IMG/VR virus record: IMGVR_UViG_2595698371_000001
Reading direction: 5' to 3' (one strand)
Source of the DNA: Bongovirus bongo
Taxonomy: Duplodnaviria > Heunggongvirae > Uroviricota > Caudoviricetes > Vilmaviridae
Length of the DNA stretch: 64,000 nt
The position numbers and the translations under genes are program-made. Of this stretch, positions 19,740-64,000 are shown in pieces. Positions within the stretch are counted from its first letter, which is position 1. Every line of letters begins with the position of its first letter. The notes beneath the pieces were generated by a model that worked only from the letters and a program-made list of their open reading frames with translations, did no database searches and was not told where the DNA came from.

Positions 19740-19765
19740 GGGATTAGCTTCGCACCCGCGCGGAA

Positions 19766-19780
19766 GTGATTACAGGAGAG
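19766..19780 (-). promoter_or_regulatory. B-motif copy (CTCTCCTGTAATCAC on the coding strand of the downstream leftward gene)
   Basis: 26 bp upstream of the start of the 19739 gene. Confidence 0.5.
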
Positions 19781-20003: not shown

Positions 20004-20022
20004 TGACCTGCGATTACAGGAG
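20004..20022 (+). promoter_or_regulatory. composite AB motif TGACCTGCGATTACAGGAG
   Basis: exact consensus copy; followed at 20034..20050 by the A-like CGACCTGCGGTTTTGCAG. Confidence 0.5.
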
Positions 20023-20261
20023 ACCGGGCGCGCGACCTGCGGTTTTGCAGAGCTAGGCAATCGCAGATGAGTGAAACTCTCAGGAAACTCTTAGGGTCGA
20101 ACTGGCGCTTTGTGGGAATACAGAAAGCCGGTACTATCTGCGTGGGCTCGCGAGAGGTTGGTATTCCCTTCCCCCTCAGCGAGCGCGGCACCAGTGGCTC
20201 ACGACTGGTCGAGGTGCCCCTCCCCTGGGGGTCGTGTCCCAGGGGAGCCTCCCCCAGTCTT

Positions 20262-20276
20262 CTCCTGTAATCACCC
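20262..20276 (+). promoter_or_regulatory. B-motif copy CTCCTGTAATCACCC
   Basis: 25 bp upstream of the GTG at 20302. Confidence 0.5.
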
Positions 20277-20652: not shown

Positions 20653-20896
20653 CCTCCTCACCGACCGCAATCGCATGCTGGAGATGCTGTGGGAGATGGA
20701 CAACGAGCTGAGAGCTTGGCATGCGAGTGGCGTGTGGAAGAGTTCGGTCGACGCCGACCAAACCGCTGCTATCTACAAGAAGATGGACGAGCGCCACATA
20801 CTTGCACAGGGGTTGAGGGAGATTGGGTGTGTCCCATGGGATTTCCACCCCCACCGCGACAATAGCTGGCTAGTCGGGCTCCGAAACATGGCCTGA
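20633..20896 (+). CDS. hypothetical protein
   Basis: 87-aa ORF; alternative ATG start at 20666. Confidence 0.4.
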   Translation: MSSSRADLLTDRNRMLEMLWEMDNELRAWHASGVWKSSVDADQTAAIYKKMDERHILAQGLREIGCVPWDFHPHRDNSWLVGLRNMA

Positions 20897-20913
20897 CCTG
20901 CGATTACAGAACC
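20894..20913 (+). promoter_or_regulatory. composite AB motif TGACCTGCGATTACAGAACC
   Basis: immediately upstream of the extended -10 TGATACAAC and the ATG at 20933. Confidence 0.5.
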
Positions 20914-27177: not shown

Positions 27178-27735
27178 ATGGCACGACTTACTGCTGCGCA
27201 GTTGCGCAAGAAACACCAGGACACCTTCGAGAAGTTCTGGGCGGCGTACCCGCGCCACACGCACATCACCGAAGCCCAAAAGGCGTGGGCCGACCTCATG
27301 GAGGAGGGCCGCGACGCCAACCAGATCGTCAGCGCTGCAAGGCGTTACGCCGCCAGCGTGGCCAACACGGACATGAAGTACGTGCCAGGTCCCCACAACT
27401 GGCTGCGGGCAGGCCAATACGACGACGCGGACCTGTTCCAGGACGAGCGTCAGGCCCAGATCAACTGGCTCAAGCAGATGTGGAAGACCGCCAACGTCAA
27501 GGCCGTTGAAGACCGGTTCCACGTCACGATGCCGAAGAAGTACCCGCCCGAGGACATAACCGAACCGGACGCCGTGGCGTTCTGGTACCGGACTCAGGCG
27601 CAAGCATGGATCTTCGAGATGTACAAGGAGAAGTACGAGAAGTGCCCGACGGCAACCAGCCAGCCTACGACGAGCGAGCCGAGCAGTCCGTCCTTGGAGC
27701 CATCCTCCACAACCCAGATGTCTTTGGCGATCTGA
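27178..27735 (+). CDS. hypothetical protein (possible replication accessory); 3' end uncertain, may overlap the helicase start
   Basis: GAGGAGG SD; 185-aa ORF. Confidence 0.4.
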   Translation: MARLTAAQLRKKHQDTFEKFWAAYPRHTHITEAQKAWADLMEEGRDANQIVSAARRYAASVANTDMKYVPGPHNWLRAGQYDDADLFQDERQAQINWLKQMWKTANVKAVEDRFHVTMPKKYPPEDITEPDAVAFWYRTQAQAWIFEMYKEKYEKCPTATSQPTTSEPSSPSLEPSSTTQMSLAI

Positions 27736-28928
27736 AGAAGCTGAAGGCCGAGCACTTCTTCCTCCCGGCCCATGAGGTCATCTTTGCGACCCTGAGCCAG
27801 ATGTACGTCGATGACCAGAAGATCGACTCGATCACGGTCTTCGCGAAGCTGTCTGAGAACCAGGATCTTCGCCGGGTCGGCGGGGCCCCTTACCTGGCAG
27901 ATCTGTTGCAGGCGTTCAAGTCTGCGCAGAACGTCAGCGCCTACGCTGACATCGTCATCGACAAGTGGCGGATCCGGCAGATCAACTCGCTGGGGCAGCG
28001 GTTCCAGACCATCTCGGCCAGCACCAACGACGTTGACTCCGCACTCGACGCGGCCCGCCGCTTCCTGGACGAGGTCGATGAGCAGCAGGACATGGATGCG
28101 GTCAACTTCCGCGACCTGTTCCAGATCTGGACCGAGGCCCAAGAGGACGACCGACCGGCCATCGAGACGCCGTTCATCGGTCTCAATGACCGTCTGGCAG
28201 GCGGATTCCACCGTCAGCGCCTCTACGTCATCGGTGCCCGTCCTGGCTGCGGTAAGACGATCCTGGGGGCCCAGTGCGCCCTGTACGCCGCGCAGATGCA
28301 CCACAAGGCGCTGATCTTCTCCCTGGAGCTGTCCAAGGAGGATCTGATGGGCCGCATCCTGGCGTGTGGTGCCCGTGCCGACTATGGGCAGATCACCGCG
28401 AAGCGCATGTCGACGGAGACGCTGGCGAAGGTGACGCGGTGGGCGAGTGCCGCCGCGAACCTGACTCTCGAGGTGGACGACCGGCCGGATCACACCATCG
28501 AGTCCATCGCGCAGGCGTGCCGGATCAAGAAGCAGCGCGAGGGTCTGGACTTCGTCTTCATCGACTACCTGCAGTTGGTGGAGCAGTCGAAGGGGCAGAA
28601 CCGTGTGGAGGCGGTTGACCACATGGCGGCGCGTGCCCGTCAGATCGCCCGAAAGCTGGACTGCGTGGTGGTCGTGGCCGCGCAGCTCAACCGCAAGATC
28701 GAGGACAACGGTGGCAAGCCGCGCCTGCCGACCAAGTCCGATTTCCGTGAGTCCGGTGGCATCGAGCAGACCGCTGATGCCGCACTCGTCCTGTCACGAC
28801 CGGTGGACGAGAACGGGGAGGAGGCCGACAAGATGCCCATGATGAACTTGACGCTTGTCAAGAACCGCACTGGCGTGGAGGGAACCATGCAGCTGCGGGA
28901 GCGTTTCGACATGGCGATGTTCCAGTGA
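27606..28928 (+). CDS. dnaB: DnaB-like replicative helicase
   Basis: 440 aa; N-terminal ERAEQSVLGAIL; Walker A GARPGCGKT; RecA-like core. Confidence 0.85.
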   Translation: MDLRDVQGEVREVPDGNQPAYDERAEQSVLGAILHNPDVFGDLKKLKAEHFFLPAHEVIFATLSQMYVDDQKIDSITVFAKLSENQDLRRVGGAPYLADLLQAFKSAQNVSAYADIVIDKWRIRQINSLGQRFQTISASTNDVDSALDAARRFLDEVDEQQDMDAVNFRDLFQIWTEAQEDDRPAIETPFIGLNDRLAGGFHRQRLYVIGARPGCGKTILGAQCALYAAQMHHKALIFSLELSKEDLMGRILACGARADYGQITAKRMSTETLAKVTRWASAAANLTLEVDDRPDHTIESIAQACRIKKQREGLDFVFIDYLQLVEQSKGQNRVEAVDHMAARARQIARKLDCVVVVAAQLNRKIEDNGGKPRLPTKSDFRESGGIEQTADAALVLSRPVDENGEEADKMPMMNLTLVKNRTGVEGTMQLRERFDMAMFQ

Positions 28929-29455: not shown

Positions 29456-29884
29456 TTGCTAAAAGTGGGCCGAAGCCGCAAGTCCGCAAAGGCGGCTGGC
29501 GCATCGTTCGAGCGCCTGATCGCAGATGGGCTACGAGATGCATTGGGTGACAAGAATATTCAGCGTGCTCCGCGCTGGGGAAGCGTCGACAAGGGCGACA
29601 TCATCAACGTCCGCATCGACGGTCAAGATTTGGTTATACAGACTAAAGACGTTACTCGTTTGGACCTTCCCAAGGGTGTCGGAGACGCTAAACTTCAAGC
29701 CGTGAATGCAGGGGCCCTCGCAGGCCTGTTCATCCATAAGCGCAAGGGAACCACTGACCCGATGAAGCAATGGGTTAGCTGTACCGTTGCGGAGCTAGTT
29801 GCACTGATCACCAAGGTTCCGGTACACGCCGGGGCTGTGGAAGGGAATGAAGGGAGGGCGGATGACCGCCACTCTGGAGAATGA
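29456..29884 (+). CDS. Hjc-like PD-(D/E)XK Holliday-junction resolvase (putative)
   Basis: GASFERLIADGLRD...GDIINVRIDGQDLVIQTKD matches Hjc motifs G.aFEREL and PDvvA..EvK; preceded by a low-GC promoter-like region. Confidence 0.45.
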   Translation: MLKVGRSRKSAKAAGASFERLIADGLRDALGDKNIQRAPRWGSVDKGDIINVRIDGQDLVIQTKDVTRLDLPKGVGDAKLQAVNAGALAGLFIHKRKGTTDPMKQWVSCTVAELVALITKVPVHAGAVEGNEGRADDRHSGE

Positions 29885-30488
29885 CACCGACTTCGACTGG
29901 CGCACCCGTTCGGTGTGCGAGGCAGAAGACTTCGACATGACATTCGTGGATGTGGACGACCTGATCGAGCAGGGCGTCGAGCGTGACATGGCCAAGGACA
30001 TCATCAAGCAGCACGATGATGCCGCCAAGGCTGTGTGTGATCGCTGCCCCGTCGTCGCCCAGTGCCTGAACCAGGCCATGGAGGACAACGAGGAGTACGG
30101 CGTGTGGGGCGGCAAGAACCCCGCCGAACGCAACCGCGAGCGTCACATCTGGCTGCAGATCCGTGGCATCCCGTCGCTGCCCGCCGATCTCGGTGAGGTC
30201 AAGGATCCCGATGCTCTCAGCTCAAACGCTGCGGCCAATGCGAAGTTGACCCGCCGCAACGAGCGGGCCCGCATCGCGCGGGATCTGCTGCTGATGCAGC
30301 CCGCCGACTGGACCAACACCACGCGGTCCTCCGGTACCCACACCCGCGAGCAGTACCTGGCGGTGATGGACATGATCCTGGCGAACCCGGCCTCGACGGC
30401 TGAGGTGATCGCGAACCGGATCGGTCGCCGGGGTGAGTACATCAACTCGATGCTCCGCGAGGTCTGCAAGGCCCTCGAGGTCAACTAG
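29862..30488 (+). CDS. second WhiB-like protein
   Basis: Cys cluster C..C..C..C plus GVWGG; AAGGGAGGG SD before the second ATG. Confidence 0.6.
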   Translation: MTATLENDTDFDWRTRSVCEAEDFDMTFVDVDDLIEQGVERDMAKDIIKQHDDAAKAVCDRCPVVAQCLNQAMEDNEEYGVWGGKNPAERNRERHIWLQIRGIPSLPADLGEVKDPDALSSNAAANAKLTRRNERARIARDLLLMQPADWTNTTRSSGTHTREQYLAVMDMILANPASTAEVIANRIGRRGEYINSMLREVCKALEVN

Positions 30489-30687: not shown

Positions 30688-30718
30688 TGACCTGGGAAAA
30701 GCTTCCTGTAATCACCCC
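30688..30718 (+). promoter_or_regulatory. A-like (TGACCTGGG) plus B motif (CTTCCTGTAATCACCCC)
   Basis: 27 bp upstream of the ATG at 30746. Confidence 0.45.
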
Positions 30719-32978: not shown

Positions 32979-32997
32979 CCCTCCTGTAATCACCCTC
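32979..32997 (+). promoter_or_regulatory. B-motif copy CCTCCTGTAATCACCCTC
   Basis: 34 bp upstream of the ATG at 33032. Confidence 0.45.
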
Positions 32998-37410: not shown

Positions 37411-37428
37411 CTTCCTGTAATCACCTCC
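37411..37428 (+). promoter_or_regulatory. B-motif copy CTTCCTGTAATCACCTCC at the entrance of the tRNA array
   Basis: 140 bp upstream of the first tRNA. Confidence 0.45.
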
Positions 37429-42134: not shown

Positions 42135-43249
<1,115 letters not shown>

Positions 43250-44530: not shown

Positions 44531-44551
44531 CTGACCTGCGATTACAGAACC
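44531..44551 (+). promoter_or_regulatory. composite AB motif CTGACCTGCGATTACAGAACC
   Basis: between the array terminator and rtcB. Confidence 0.5.
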
Positions 44552-47640: not shown

Positions 47641-48041
47641 CCGTCACGAACGTCATTGCGCCCGAGTTGAATCCGCGTCGTCTGACGATCATGGGTGACC
47701 GCCAGTCAGGCAAGACGCACCACCTGTTGGACATCGCGGTAGACAACGCGGAGCGTGGTAAGGCTGTGTTGTTTGACTGCGCAACAGTTCCGCTGATGGC
47801 CAACACCTATGACCGCTGCGTCCGTGAGCATGCTCGGTTCGGATGGCCCGAGAGCACGGTCGTGAAGTGTCTCGACGGTCTGCGCGAGATCTACTTCGAG
47901 TCGGGCGGCAAGATCGTCTTCAACGCCGGTACTGCCTACGTGAAGCGGTACACCGGCCTGGTGGATGTCCATCTGATCGATGACACCGATGTCGATGCCC
48001 GTGCCGGTGCGGAGCTGGTCATCCGCGCCGTGAAGCGCTGA
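47637..48041 (+). CDS. P-loop NTPase
   Basis: Walker A GDRQSGKT; GTGA overlap start; the stop codon is embedded in the TGACCTGCG motif. Confidence 0.5.
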   Translation: MTVTNVIAPELNPRRLTIMGDRQSGKTHHLLDIAVDNAERGKAVLFDCATVPLMANTYDRCVREHARFGWPESTVVKCLDGLREIYFESGGKIVFNAGTAYVKRYTGLVDVHLIDDTDVDARAGAELVIRAVKR

Positions 48042-48058
48042 CCTGCGATTACAGAACG
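48037..48058 (+). promoter_or_regulatory. composite AB motif GCTGACCTGCGATTACAGAACG
   Basis: overlaps the stop codon of the 47637 gene; 17 bp upstream of the ATG at 48075. Confidence 0.5.
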
Positions 48059-54344: not shown

Positions 54345-54368
54345 TCTCCTGTAATCGCAGGTCAGCCC
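54345..54368 (-). promoter_or_regulatory. composite AB motif (minus strand: GGGCTGACCTGCGATTACAGGAGA)
   Basis: about 35 bp upstream of the leftward gene start at 54308; orientation follows transcription. Confidence 0.5.
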
Positions 54369-61377: not shown

Positions 61378-62106
61378 TTAGACGACGGCCAGGGGCAGGA
61401 AATTCTTGGCCCCTACGCCGTGCACCTCAATCGAGATCGATGCCTTACGGCCGTTCCCGTTGCCCCCACACTGCATGCACGTGATGCACTGCACTGTGTT
61501 GTCTTTACCCGCAGTAGCGGGGCACTGGACAAGTCCCTTAGGCTTTTCTGCACCCAACGGACGGACGACAAACCCGCGCCAACCAGCACGGCGCGCGGCA
61601 ACGTAGTCATCAATCGTGTCGCATGACGCCATGCAGAACTCTGCAAGGCTGGCGTCGCAGTCGCGCCATTGGTGCGTGTAGCCGGTGACGCCATCGGCGA
61701 CGCTGGCAATGGTTGCCCACACATGTGTGGGAACCGCGCCAGGATCGCCGTAGGCACCGAGCCTCACCTTGCGACCAGCGAACGCGGCCGGATCGAACGG
61801 ACGGACGTTGCCACGCACATACGCCCCGTACACAGAGTTCGGGGTACGCATGTTCACGTAGCAAGTCCGCTTGCGACGTTCCGCCGAGTTGCCCCGATGG
61901 ACACAACCGCCACACACGGCAGCGTCGCTACCGTCTGCAATGGCCTCACTCGGCTTGACATCAGCACGCAGGATCCACGTTTGGACCATGTCACCTGTCT
62001 TGACATTGCTGGACTTGAACGACGCCAGCACCACAATGGGAGTGACGTTGTCAAGTGCCGAGATGCCCTCCCAGACGACCATGGTCTGATGCTTGCGATT
62101 CGACAT
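61378..62106 (-). CDS. hypothetical Cys-motif protein (242 aa); first gene of the leftward operon
   Basis: CGGAAGGGAATAGAGCA before the ATG; CGGC.H and ITCMQCGG motifs. Confidence 0.45.
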   Translation of the reverse strand: MSNRKHQTMVVWEGISALDNVTPIVVLASFKSSNVKTGDMVQTWILRADVKPSEAIADGSDAAVCGGCVHRGNSAERRKRTCYVNMRTPNSVYGAYVRGNVRPFDPAAFAGRKVRLGAYGDPGAVPTHVWATIASVADGVTGYTHQWRDCDASLAEFCMASCDTIDDYVAARRAGWRGFVVRPLGAEKPKGLVQCPATAGKDNTVQCITCMQCGGNGNGRKASISIEVHGVGAKNFLPLAVV

Positions 62107-62819
62107 TGCTCTATTCCCTTCCGTGTGGTACGGGGCACCAATTGGCACACCCAATAGGGCACACGGATGAGAAGTGACTCCTCACCCGTGTGCCCGATGA
62201 GTGCCCCTAAGTGACATTGATCGAGATCAATGCCCACTAAGGGCACCGTAAGTTCACACTTGGAAGATTAGGAAAAGAGAGACGAGTCCGACTGACCTAG
62301 CACACGTGCCGCACGCCCCATAGCCTCTCGTAGGCGTAGCTAATGCGGGAATCTGCTAGGTGTCCCTTGCCACAATTGCCCTGGTAGACGGCCATATCGC
62401 ATGCCGACGTTCCCACTTCTACGACTCTCACGTAGGGGTACGACCAGGGAATGTGAGTCGTCGGCCGTTTGCAGTGCGCAAAAAACATGCACCGCCGGTA
62501 CCGACTCCCATTGTGGGGACTCACGACGCGCCCACTTCCGGACCTCTGGGCAGACTTCACCCACCAGGCCATACCTCGCGCGTCACACTATGGAGTTCTC
62601 AAACAACGTTTAAGGACACGTCGCAGCCGACGCCAGTCCCGCACGCCCGTAGGCCATGCGATTTGCGGGTACTACTCCTTTCTGAAGGCAATGTTGTAGA
62701 AGGCGCTCCCGGTCCCCCCCTTGCGGGGGGGGCGGTGCGTCGAACAAGGAGAACGTTACGGCCAGGGTGGTCAGCAAACAAGTAGGGGGGGCATTGTTTC
62801 GGGCACCAAAACGGCTAGT

Positions 62820-63915
62820 TGCGAGGCTGTGACCTGCAGGAATATGAGTTTCTGTGACGTACATCACACAGTGGATTTTGGGCCTACAGCAAACAAGCCT
62901 CTGACCTGGGGTTTTAGGTAAAAGCGCAGGTCAAAGCACATACATAGAAAAACCTATATATTAGCTAGGCTTGCAAACACCAAAATGCCCTGTGACCTGC
63001 AGAAACTTTTTTCTAGCAACGTAGTTAACTATGTGCGTTTTGGGCCCGAAATCAGCGTCAAGCGTACCCCGTTTGACCTGCGGTTTCTCCACATATGCCC
63101 TGGTAGCGAGTTTGTCAGGACAAACACCCAAAAATGGCCAAAAATTTGCTAGCAAATCCGAAAATCACTCATATTCGTTCATGTCGATATACGCATATCT
63201 GCTGGTAGACGCGGTTTCAAGGGTCGAAAGTCGGTCTACAGCTGCAGTTGGCAGCCCAGAATTTTGGGTGGTTTCGACGGGTACAGCTAACCCTGTTTAT
63301 GCAGGTGGGAGGCCATAGCAAACACTGTGTTTCGGGGCATGCCAGAACGGCCGATATGCGCGGATGCGGGTAGGTGAGGTTAGGCAACCCTTAGTGCTAC
63401 CTGGTCAACCTGGTCTGCGGACACGCGTATGTGGGACGGTGCGACGCAACGGGGCATTGCGGGCCCCTAGCGTCCACACAGACGGCCGAACGGGGCACGG
63501 TGCGATGGATCGCTTGGGTGAGTCCATCTCGATCGCTTAGAACGGCTCTGAGAGCTTCGAGGACGACCGGGCCGCGCAAATACACCCTTCCAACCCTGCC
63601 TGTCAAGCGTCTGTGACCATTGCCTCAACAGGGTTGACAGCAGTGCGTGACATGTGGTATCAGGAGGCCAGCTAACAGTGGTTAGCAGTGCTAACGCTGA
63701 CTGGAGTCAGTAGAGCTACCAGGAACGATGATTCACATGATCTGCAAAAGCCCAGGACAACGGTGCATATGCGAGATCTGCAGCGTGTGACCTGCATCGA
63801 TGCGACACACAAACCAACACGTTGCGACGTGCACACAGACCAGCTAACACGTCACGTGAGTTAGCTGCAGCAAACCCAAGATCCAGCAAAAACCTGCTTT
63901 GACCTGCGGAAACGT
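62820..63915. repeat. right-end cluster of at least 7 A-motif sites (TGACCTGCR, often TTTGACCTGCGG) in an otherwise ORF-free, lower-GC region
   Basis: copies at 62830 (TGACCTGCAGG), 62903 (TGACCTGGGG), 62925 (reverse complement, GCGCAGGTCAAAG), 62994 (TGACCTGCAG), 63072 (TTTGACCTGCGG), 63786 (TGACCTGCATCGATGCG) and 63898 (TTTGACCTGCGGAAAC). Confidence 0.6.
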
Positions 63916-64000
63916 CGAGGCCGGCGAGCGAAATAGCTAAGTCGGGAGGTTTGCCTGGGGGGCACCCCCACCGGCCGGAACGGCCGGACACCTCCTGCAA

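Follow-up and report, generated by a model that had tools for sequence, protein, structure and literature searches.

The closest described counterpart of the locus discussed here is the repressor system of the cluster A mycobacteriophage L5, in which gp71 recognises a 13-bp asymmetric operator or stoperator (GGTGGMTGTCAAG), whose reverse complement (CTTGACAKCCACC) contains the -35 hexamer TTGACA. About 30 such sites are known in L5, both at Pleft, an early promoter close to the right end of the genome, and at non-promoter positions, where the stoperators are oriented with transcription. Repeated boxes serve in other regulatory settings, too: the middle promoters of phage T4 carry a MotA box at -30 and rely on appropriation of sigma by MotA and AsiA, the ParB-family protein KorB of plasmid RK2 uses 13-bp palindromic OB sites, which lie at promoters, about 100-200 bp off or more than 1 kb off, and in iteron-type origins (lambda ori, P1 oriR, P4 ori/crr) repeated boxes stand beside an AT-rich non-coding stretch. 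Here, we examine a repeated motif, TGACCTGCR (hereafter A box), in Mycobacterium phage PegLeg (cluster M1; NC_021299.1, 80,955 bp). The window, a stretch of 64,000 nucleotides, corresponds to PegLeg genome positions 16956-80955 (genome coordinate = window coordinate + 16,955), and window positions are used throughout unless stated otherwise. A boxes cluster in the last 1.9 kb of the window, and we propose that this cluster is not a replication origin but an array of operator-type sites, upstream of the promoter that serves the leftward genes, to which a phage-specific transcription regulator would bind; judged from the sequence, this proposal has in our view about an even chance of being right.

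The last 1901 bases of PegLeg match positions 62100-64000 at 100% (megablast), and the final base of the window is the final base of the PegLeg record, i.e. the right cohesive end. According to BLAST, sixteen M1 genomes are at least 97% identical over the right end, whereas Reindeer and the M2 phages match only partly; eight cluster M genomes were compared (PegLeg, Reindeer, Nanosmite, Estes, MrMagoo, Aziz, GenevaB15 and Rey). The last annotated gene, PEGLEG_159 (61378-62106), is read leftward and is the first of 25 leftward genes (159-135), a block reaching the serine integrase. As the initial annotation of this DNA had stated, the region beyond it is non-coding and lower in GC: it is unannotated in PegLeg and six relatives (Estes, MrMagoo, Nanosmite, Aziz, GenevaB15 and Izel), a 40-aa open reading frame (ORF) in Reindeer being the lone annotated exception, and its GC content amounts to 0.55-0.56 as compared to about 0.62 elsewhere. 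ORFs of at least 66 aa in the right end have no PHROG match, and insertions and deletions between relatives are not multiples of three, so that reading frames in the right end are broken. Scans of 62000-64000 for Rfam families (at a permissive threshold), tRNA or tmRNA and tandem repeats gave nothing relevant, and a sigma-70 consensus scan of the right end found no promoter and weak terminator-like sites only; the stretch TTGCAAAC, which had been described as promoter-like, has no sigma-70-type match either. Positions 62107-64000 most likely represent a non-coding control region at the right end of this temperate phage.

The motif occurs 12 times in the window against 1.8 expected, and six exact copies (boxes 1 and 3-7; Table 1) are located within 62830-63908. 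In 1000 first-order Markov simulations of the right end, 0.04 copies were expected and never more than one was obtained, which corresponds to a more than 100-fold enrichment. The cluster noticed in the initial annotation is thus real, but its count of at least seven was too high, as the copy at 62902 (box 2, TGACCTGGG) carries one mismatch. The inverted orientation of the copy at 62925 was read correctly; in contrast, at least three copies were said to share an extended form, and only two exact instances of TTTGACCTGCGG(A/T)(A/T) exist (63072 and 63898), the inverted copy reading TTTGACCTGCGC. The likeness of 63792-63805, the continuation of box 6, to the palindrome at the integrase start does not hold, either, given three mismatches in 14 positions and about 6.5 such matches expected by chance. 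When all words of the PegLeg right end are ranked, TGACCTG is the top 7-mer and TGACCTGC the top 8-mer. In Estes, TGACCTG ties for the top 7-mer, although the right end of this phage cannot be aligned to that of PegLeg by megablast beyond the leader of the predicted leftward transcript discussed below.

Each of the seven further cluster M genomes examined likewise has a box array at its right end, so that the sites are conserved in relatives; the count per right end is 6-13 boxes in all eight. Distant BLAST searches revealed no relatives of the array beyond cluster M. In an alignment of seven genomes, the boxes appear as islands of identity amid diverged sequence, and the first four or five box positions relative to a leftward promoter-like element, P_left, are kept between M1 and M2. 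The M2 boxes are found at -86, -158/-162, -178/-182 and -257 from the predicted start, with more out to -688 and a further pair 74-84 bp from the end. Box 1 has its counterparts in the M2 box at -86 and in TGAGCTGCG of Reindeer and Nanosmite. The inverted pair of boxes 2 and 3 recurs in Reindeer with the box 2 counterpart reading TGACCTGCG and its partner TGACCTGGG, and is replaced by two TGACCTGGTCA palindromes in M2. Reindeer boxes 2-5 are all displaced by 10 bp with respect to PegLeg, and the boxes of Nanosmite form a separate set sharing the core TGACC(A/T)G. The invariant core of the A box is TGACCWG. Weak PegLeg copies lie near -557 and -658 from the predicted start, and the one at 63300 aligns with CTGACCAGCAC in M2 and GCTGACCTGCTA in Nanosmite; a common M1/M2 box at -658 was considered and dropped, as the alignment shows the two to be non-homologous.

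Part of the array is, judging from alignment, an ancient tandem duplication (62820-63160). A two-box module, TGTGACCTGCA followed after 72-81 nt by yTGACCTGsGGTTT, is present at 62820-62990 and again at 62983-63160; the copies, each about 165-175 bp long, align with a score of 88, compared to 35 +/- 9 for shuffled sequences. They are only 54% identical overall, while their boxes agree at 13/13 and 12/13 positions, and this decay of the modules around intact boxes argues for selection on the boxes themselves.

Outside the right end, the A box belongs to promoter-like elements. Five of the six boxes found there are contained in a 16-mer, TGACCTGCGATTACAG, in which the box is fused to GATTACAG, an element that also stands alone in a second class of repeats. 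This 16-mer is represented by five exact copies and one variant (0.37 expected), and the suggestion that the box is one half of a bipartite site is borne out by it. In nine of ten 16-mers from PegLeg and Estes, a hexamer of the form nAnnnT lies exactly 18 nt past TGACCT (background frequency 0.035), and at five sites (PegLeg genes 52 and 125, Estes genes 60, 129 and 138) a start codon follows 6-9 nt past this hexamer. The resulting layout, which we call class Y, thus consists of TGACCTGCGATTACAG, 8 nt and a -10-like nAnnnT. The box itself holds a -35-like hexamer (TTGACC or CTGACC) with a conserved 3' extension. In view of the fixed spacing to the -10 hexamer, the class Y 16-mers look like promoters, predicted from sequence, with the A box in the -35 position, and the short distance from the -10 hexamer to the start codon points to leaderless mRNAs at several of them. 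Three Reindeer copies fit the same layout, with box and -10 kept and the GATTACAG part drifted to AATACAG. Within gene blocks, the class Y boxes sit in short gaps and are oriented with transcription, i.e. rightward at 20894, 44532 and 48039 and leftward at 54349. Altogether, eight boxes were located outside the right end. Seven of them coincide with or adjoin predicted promoters, and the remaining one is found in the divergent intergenic region of genes 49 and 50, where it follows a 16-mer that has no -10 partner and adjoins the GATTACAG element. The A-like site CGACCTGCG in this early region (20033) had been reported as isolated; it does exist, but an exact box at 20004 precedes it by 29 nt. 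The equivalent region of Estes reads GATTACAGGAG, then CTGACCTGCGGTTTTAGG.

The second repeat, class X (GGTGATTACAGGAG, on the other strand CCTGTAATCACC, the reverse of GGTGATTACAGG; B box), looks like a second promoter class, which on sequence grounds would mostly give rise to leaderless mRNAs. An nAnnnT hexamer lies 17 nt past TGTAAT in six of seven PegLeg and seven of eight Estes copies, and the start codons mostly follow 6-10 nt after it (genes 11, 49, 50, 72 and 78); the copy ahead of the tRNA cluster has the hexamer and no start codon. Both boxes meet at gene 72, whose class X promoter has an A box 7-10 nt upstream in M1, M2 and M3. A scan of IMG/VR with the 16-mer retrieved cluster M genomes plus scattered single matches, which were taken as chance. 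According to a published note on the phages Estes and Aziz, every cluster M genome carries repeats termed CR1-CR4 in comparable numbers and at comparable places, with CR3 and CR4 between the rightmost genes and stem-loops upstream of them; CR1 and CR2 probably correspond to the 16-mer and the GGTGATTACAGGAG repeat. In the papers accessible to us, which do not cover the original description of CR1-CR4, we found mention neither of a right-end array shared across subclusters and its fixed relation to a leftward promoter-like element, nor of the leaderless-promoter grammar or a CRP-type site. As related repeats have been published, the array should be seen as a new instance of phage operator and promoter-box logic rather than as a new kind of biology, and the two-box promoter grammar yields testable start sites for about 15 transcription units.

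The promoter-like element next to the array, P_left, is retained in all eight genomes, as TTGTTT-17-TAACGT in PegLeg and Nanosmite, TTGCGT-17-TAATGT in Reindeer and TTGCGT-17-TAACTT in Estes, MrMagoo, Aziz, GenevaB15 and Rey. Among TANNNT hexamers preceded at 17 nt by TTG, this one alone is conserved between PegLeg and Reindeer, and it was not listed by the sigma-70 scan because it matches the E. coli consensus weakly. A short motif, (C)AGCAAAC, recurs beside boxes at variable distance in all subclusters (in PegLeg at 62776-62782, 62888-62894, 62970-62975, 63319-63325 and 63871-63877). Its copies were considered as further leftward -35 elements and rejected as such, as only the one at 62777-62782 has a conserved -10.

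Based on this arrangement, the array would work as follows. Five boxes, together with a palindrome of the type bound by the host protein CRP, would be placed 87-331 bp upstream of a SigA-type leftward promoter, from which a structured leader and the 25-gene block 159-135 would be transcribed. The same factor would sit on the -35 region of the class Y promoters and on the right-end array; it would load on the array, probably cooperatively or by looping, and would in this way couple the leftward promoter to the class Y promoters, which it occupies directly. That a protein binds the A boxes at all is deduced from their sequence and distribution. Control of the leftward operon by the array, as suggested in the initial annotation, is plausible in view of the boxes directly upstream of the conserved leftward promoter-like element.

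The likeness to L5 lies in design. In both phages the site is short and asymmetric and has a -35-type hexamer (yTGACCTGCR in PegLeg), it is found over the -35 region of lytic promoters (predicted ones, in the case of PegLeg) and at many non-promoter positions, and the leftward early operon, whose promoter is likewise a predicted one in PegLeg, starts in non-coding DNA beside the right cohesive end. However, the sites share no sequence similarity, and PegLeg has no recognisable repressor homologue. Its 5-6 promoter-linked copies plus the right-end array compare to about 30 sites in L5, and its right-end boxes, which lack a uniform orientation, are placed upstream of the predicted promoter instead of covering it. 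As the site design matches that of the L5 repressor operator, repression by the box-binding factor, in the sense of immunity or shut-off, seems somewhat more likely than activation. Cluster M phages are reportedly homoimmune. Homoimmunity requires operators that are shared by M1 and M2, and the A boxes are shared in this way. The T4 middle promoters offer a second comparison, as there, too, a phage-specific box stands in for the host -35 element, with a constant spacing to a normal -10 hexamer, which is also the layout of classes Y and X; yet PegLeg has no MotA or AsiA homologues, its boxes partly resemble the -35 hexamer, and T4 lacks an array of promoter-less boxes. The distribution of the A boxes at promoters, near them and more than 1 kb away is reminiscent of the KorB sites, although PegLeg codes for no ParB-like protein and the A box, aside from the TGACCTGGTCA palindromes of M2, lacks symmetry.

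Several points weigh against an operator-type array. None of the boxes overlaps P_left. Between its -35 and the nearest box upstream there is a gap of about 50 bp, an unusual arrangement if the factor is a simple repressor, and boxes 6 and 7 lie more than 1 kb from P_left and are left without explanation by the model. P_left itself is a predicted promoter, favoured by its conservation and not by its strength. Beyond about -260, the boxes of M1 and M2 show no positional homology in the alignment, and box orientation is not conserved, being mostly + in PegLeg but + for the proximal and - for the distal boxes in M2. A constraint test across seven M1 genomes had low power, with two variable columns among 63 box positions against about three expected. 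A regulator is missing as well: 50 proteins scanned against Pfam and PHROGs, among them 20 of the 25 products of genes 135-159, gp48-53, gp67, gp70, gp72 and gp1-11 except gp3, gave no helix-turn-helix (HTH), ribbon-helix-helix, ParB or repressor match, and the annotations of PegLeg, Estes, Reindeer, MrMagoo and Izel (including a 2025 one) name no repressor, Cro or DNA-binding regulator. A ParB, repressor or initiator, which the initial annotation had proposed to look for close to the array, was thus not found among the scanned products of genes 135-159.

Ranking PegLeg proteins by their conservation in Estes brought up no obvious regulator candidate. The product of gene 139, which lies beside a class Y promoter, was considered and set aside, as its M1 and M2 versions share only 44% identity and an HTH match was not obtained; homologues of gp159 are widespread, but outside cluster M. 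One candidate is PegLeg gp71 (29862-30488, +), which combines a WhiB domain (Pfam, E = 2e-17) with a C-terminal part of about 115 residues, whose conservation across M1, M2, M3 and Nanosmite equals or exceeds that of the WhiB domain. Five homologues were found, all in cluster M, and the only other match (P0006) spans the WhiB part. The AlphaFold model of gp71 is poor (predicted local distance difference test score, pLDDT, 53), with C-terminal helices at 65-80 and a three-helix, HTH-like end; Foldseek against PDB returned nothing below E = 0.3 and a PDB sequence search nothing, and an HTH fold would be a guess from this model. WhiB-like proteins dock on region 4 of SigA. In a more far-reaching and, in our opinion, quite improbable scenario, the lytic programme would be run by two '-35 replacement' boxes, A (TGACCTGCR) and B (CCTGTAATCACC), through phage factors hijacking SigA, with the promoter-less array and the CRP- and IdeR-type sites as a loading or decision hub, and gp71 would then be the natural candidate for such a factor. 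If this were true, the early leftward operon would be set by host physiology from a hub at the first-injected end. Whichever protein is involved, the A box is the obvious bait to find the regulator of temperate phages that have no recognisable repressor.

Other explanations of the array have to be weighed against this operator-type reading. One of them takes the right-end boxes for class Y-type promoters, each box supplying the -35 for a non-coding transcript or small RNA that would be read rightward in the direction of the cohesive end. Five of the six exact PegLeg boxes do point rightward, just as class Y boxes point with transcription, box 4 has CAACGT (CAACAT in Reindeer) at exactly the class Y spacing with an ATG 8 nt on, and conservation between PegLeg and Reindeer extends to the stretches past boxes 4 and 5. 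Box 4 is, however, the sole right-end box with such a hexamer: the other six have no nAnnnT 17-20 nt downstream, the M2 counterpart of box 4 and all M2 boxes checked lack a -10, and the distal M2 boxes face the opposite way. The ORF after box 4 has 95 aa in PegLeg but stops at 21 codons in Reindeer and at 8 in Estes, and with neither an Rfam match nor a rightward terminator-like site in the region, we consider rightward transcription from the boxes unlikely. The initial annotation had offered, among other possibilities, an origin or partition-like iteron array. As iterons of the phage origin, the boxes would attract an initiator that melts the AT-rich sequence at 62935-63060. They do flank the most AT-rich stretch of a genome with 62% GC, in a non-coding region whose architecture is conserved; PegLeg also encodes a DnaB-like helicase (gp68) with a neighbouring initiator-like protein (gp67). 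As gp67 (27178-27735, +) matches PHROG families named 'replication initiation / primosomal protein' in their C-terminal part (E = 2e-10 to 3e-6), it is probably a helicase-loading or initiator protein. Yet the AT-richness of this stretch was judged by eye within a region of 55% GC and is not a feature specific to origins, the core of 7-9 bp is short compared to the 17-22 bp typical of iterons, and the spacings of 72, 25, 66 and 81 bp are irregular, with mixed orientations that differ between subclusters and without a tandem array. GC skew follows the direction of transcription and does not switch at the right end, the genes for gp67 and gp68 (27178-28928) are about 35 kb away without a box cluster near them, and a box at the -35 of five or six promoters across the genome fits a transcription factor better than an initiator. 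In the core, spacing, orientation and promoter use of its boxes, and in having no initiator gene adjacent, the locus departs from the known iteron origins, and an origin function of the boxes appears quite unlikely. A partition site of the parS or parC type was rejected, as neither the PegLeg annotation nor scans of genes 135-159 and 1-11 revealed ParA, ParM or ParB, and the phage integrates by means of a serine integrase.

The vicinity of the cohesive end might suggest that the boxes serve this end, either as cosB- or cosQ-like sites for the terminase small subunit or another end-binding protein or in the protection of the end injected first. A box is found 74-100 bp from the end in seven of eight genomes (PegLeg, Nanosmite and M2), with a one-mismatch copy in Reindeer, a second PegLeg box lies about 210 bp from the end, and the whole array is within 1.2 kb of it. 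This would hardly account for the five of seven boxes at 920-1170 bp from the end, far past known terminase recognition regions, or for the box as a promoter component elsewhere; the terminase genes are found on the opposite side of cos, at 4-6 kb in the left arm, and conserved boxes are missing from the left end. Two PegLeg look-alikes at that end, CGACCTGGGG and CGACCTGCAG, are contained in the arms of a two-tier hairpin followed by a T-run (- strand, 176-232 of the retrieved stretch from the left end of the PegLeg genome), which is likely the intrinsic terminator of the leftward genes 11-1, and they are absent in Estes. A role at the cohesive end is therefore, to our mind, highly unlikely, and Chi-like end protection was rejected, as the distal M2 boxes are on the wrong strand and the box is tied to promoters. 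Finally, the cluster could be devoid of function, a leftover of internal duplication and chance. The modules at 62820-62990 and 62983-63160 are detectably paralogous, which means that some of the box copies are not independent. Against this stand the intact boxes in modules otherwise degraded, their persistence at matching positions where the flanks can no longer be aligned by BLAST and the enrichment mentioned above, which together make a mere relic very improbable.

Table 1. Features of the PegLeg right end and of A box- and B box-associated elements elsewhere in the window (window positions unless stated otherwise; distances with a minus sign refer to the predicted start of P_left)
Feature	Position	Strand	Remarks
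A box 1, TGACCTGCA	62830-62838	+	centre at about -87
A box 2, degenerate, TGACCTGGG	62902-62910	+	about -159; paired with box 3 in inverted orientation
A box 3, TGACCTGCG on the - strand	62925-62933	-	about -184
A box 4, TGACCTGCA	62993-63001	+	about -250; CAACGT at 63017-63022
A box 5, TTTGACCTGCGG	63074-63082	+	about -331; kept in Reindeer
Weak A-like box, CACCTGCA	63300-63307	-	adjoins conserved TAGCAAAC block
A box 6, TGTGACCTGCA	63788-63796	+	205-213 bp from right end, -1045; TGACCAGCA in Reindeer
A box 7, TTTGACCTGCGG	63900-63908	+	93-101 bp from right end, -1157; TGACCAGCG in Reindeer
Predicted promoter P_left	62754-62782	-	-35 TTGTTT (62777-62782), 17-nt spacer, -10 TAACGT (62754-62759), start at about 62746
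GC-rich hairpin at predicted 5' end of leader	62702-62741	-	sequences of M1, M3 and M2 differ, hairpin kept, two pairs changed on both sides
Structured leader core, about 110 nt	62585-62694	-	conserved in M1, M2 and M3; RNAalifold, 48 pairs
Pyrimidine-rich block, TCTCTCTTTTCCTAATCTTCCAAGTGTG	62255-62282	-	largely conserved in the leaders of PegLeg, Reindeer, Estes, MrMagoo, Aziz, Rey and Nanosmite
Two adjoining stem-loops	arms 62154-62198 and 62201-62246		inverted repeats between leader and gene 159
Repeat with ribosome-binding site, CACACGGAAGGGAATAGAGCA	62107-62127	-	directly upstream of gene 159 start codon; CR3/CR4 type
CRP-type palindrome, TGTGACGTACATCACA	62853-62868		between boxes 1 and 2
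Iron-box-like element, GGTTAGGCAACCCTTAG	63376-63396		aligned with Estes palindrome
Right cohesive end, ACCTCCTGCAA	63990-64000	+	putative 11-nt 3' overhang, by analogy with M2
16-mer TGACCTGCGATTACAG and second box CGACCTGCGGTTTT	20004-20041	+	divergent 49/50 intergenic region; 16-mer without -10 partner
Class Y box, gene 52	20894-20909	+	TGACCT, 18 nt, TACCTT, 9 nt, ATG
A box upstream of gene 72, TGACCTGGG	30688-30696	+	7 nt upstream of class X box; TGACCAGGC in Estes, TGACCTGGG in Reindeer
Class Y box past tRNA cluster	44532-44547	+	-10 CATACT; box and CATACT kept in Reindeer orthologue
Class Y box, gene 125	48039-48054	+	-10 GAAGCT, 6 nt, ATG
Class Y box, gene 138	54349-54364	-	-10 TACATT
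Class X copies	20262-20275, 19763-19777, 30706-30717, 32984-32995, 37415-37426; PegLeg genome 3974-3985

Transcription from P_left would begin with a leader of 530-650 nt across the genomes (about 640 nt in PegLeg), parts of which are conserved (Table 1). Its structured core consists of a closing helix, two hairpins (one of 9 bp, the other GGAC/GUCC) and a Shine-Dalgarno-like GAAAGGAG that pairs with GAACUCC. The stem of the 9-bp hairpin is unchanged, while its loop reads UACG in M1 and M3, GGUC in Estes and GCGA in Aziz and Rey. Such UNCG and GNRA tetraloops appear on the - strand only, which argues for a leftward transcript, and a conserved ORF in the leader is excluded by insertions and deletions of 2 and 5 nt. 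No Rfam family matches this RNA, which, from its modelled structure, could act as a regulatory leader or else as a small RNA. At 62489-62501, the leader contains a weak terminator-like site that has a T-run. At the place of the two stem-loops between leader and gene 159, Reindeer and Estes also have hairpins, of different sequence, and SlimJimmy differs from the other M1 genomes by an insertion of about 150 bp at position 62171 in this region. The repeat directly upstream of gene 159 is one of a series: an ACACG(G)AGAAGGGA block with a preceding stem-loop stands before most of genes 135-159, in agreement with the published CR3/CR4 pattern.

Two palindromic elements near the boxes resemble binding sites of host regulators. 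TGTGA-N6-TCACA is the consensus of CRP, and the sequence between boxes 1 and 2 is a perfect palindrome of this type and its only occurrence in the window (0.07 expected). All five M2 genomes have TGTGACGTGCATCACA as far from the promoter anchor as PegLeg has its site (110-111 nt), and Reindeer and Nanosmite lack it; the sequence of the site suggests an input of cyclic AMP and CRP into early phage expression. The second element was recognised by comparison with the IdeR consensus, to which the Estes sequence GTAGGTAAGGCTTACCTAA (43192-43210 of the retrieved Estes stretch) fits at 16 of 19 positions, with 0 such matches expected; the aligned PegLeg and Reindeer sequences, counted by hand, agree at 15-16 of 19. 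Taken together, the CRP-type and iron-box-like elements suggest that the state of the host feeds into the development of mycobacterial phages.

At the extreme right end, the putative overhang of PegLeg corresponds to the 3' overhang ACCCCATGCAA carried by M2 phages according to the published note on Estes and Aziz. Between the distal boxes and the iron-box-like element, the sequence 63600-63660 contains a divergent pair of TTGACA hexamers (63602-63607 on the - strand and 63635-63640 on the + strand), which are followed after 18 nt by TATTTG or TATCAG. Since these -10-like hexamers lack the final T, a promoter role of the pair is doubtful; the pair itself is kept in Reindeer and Nanosmite.

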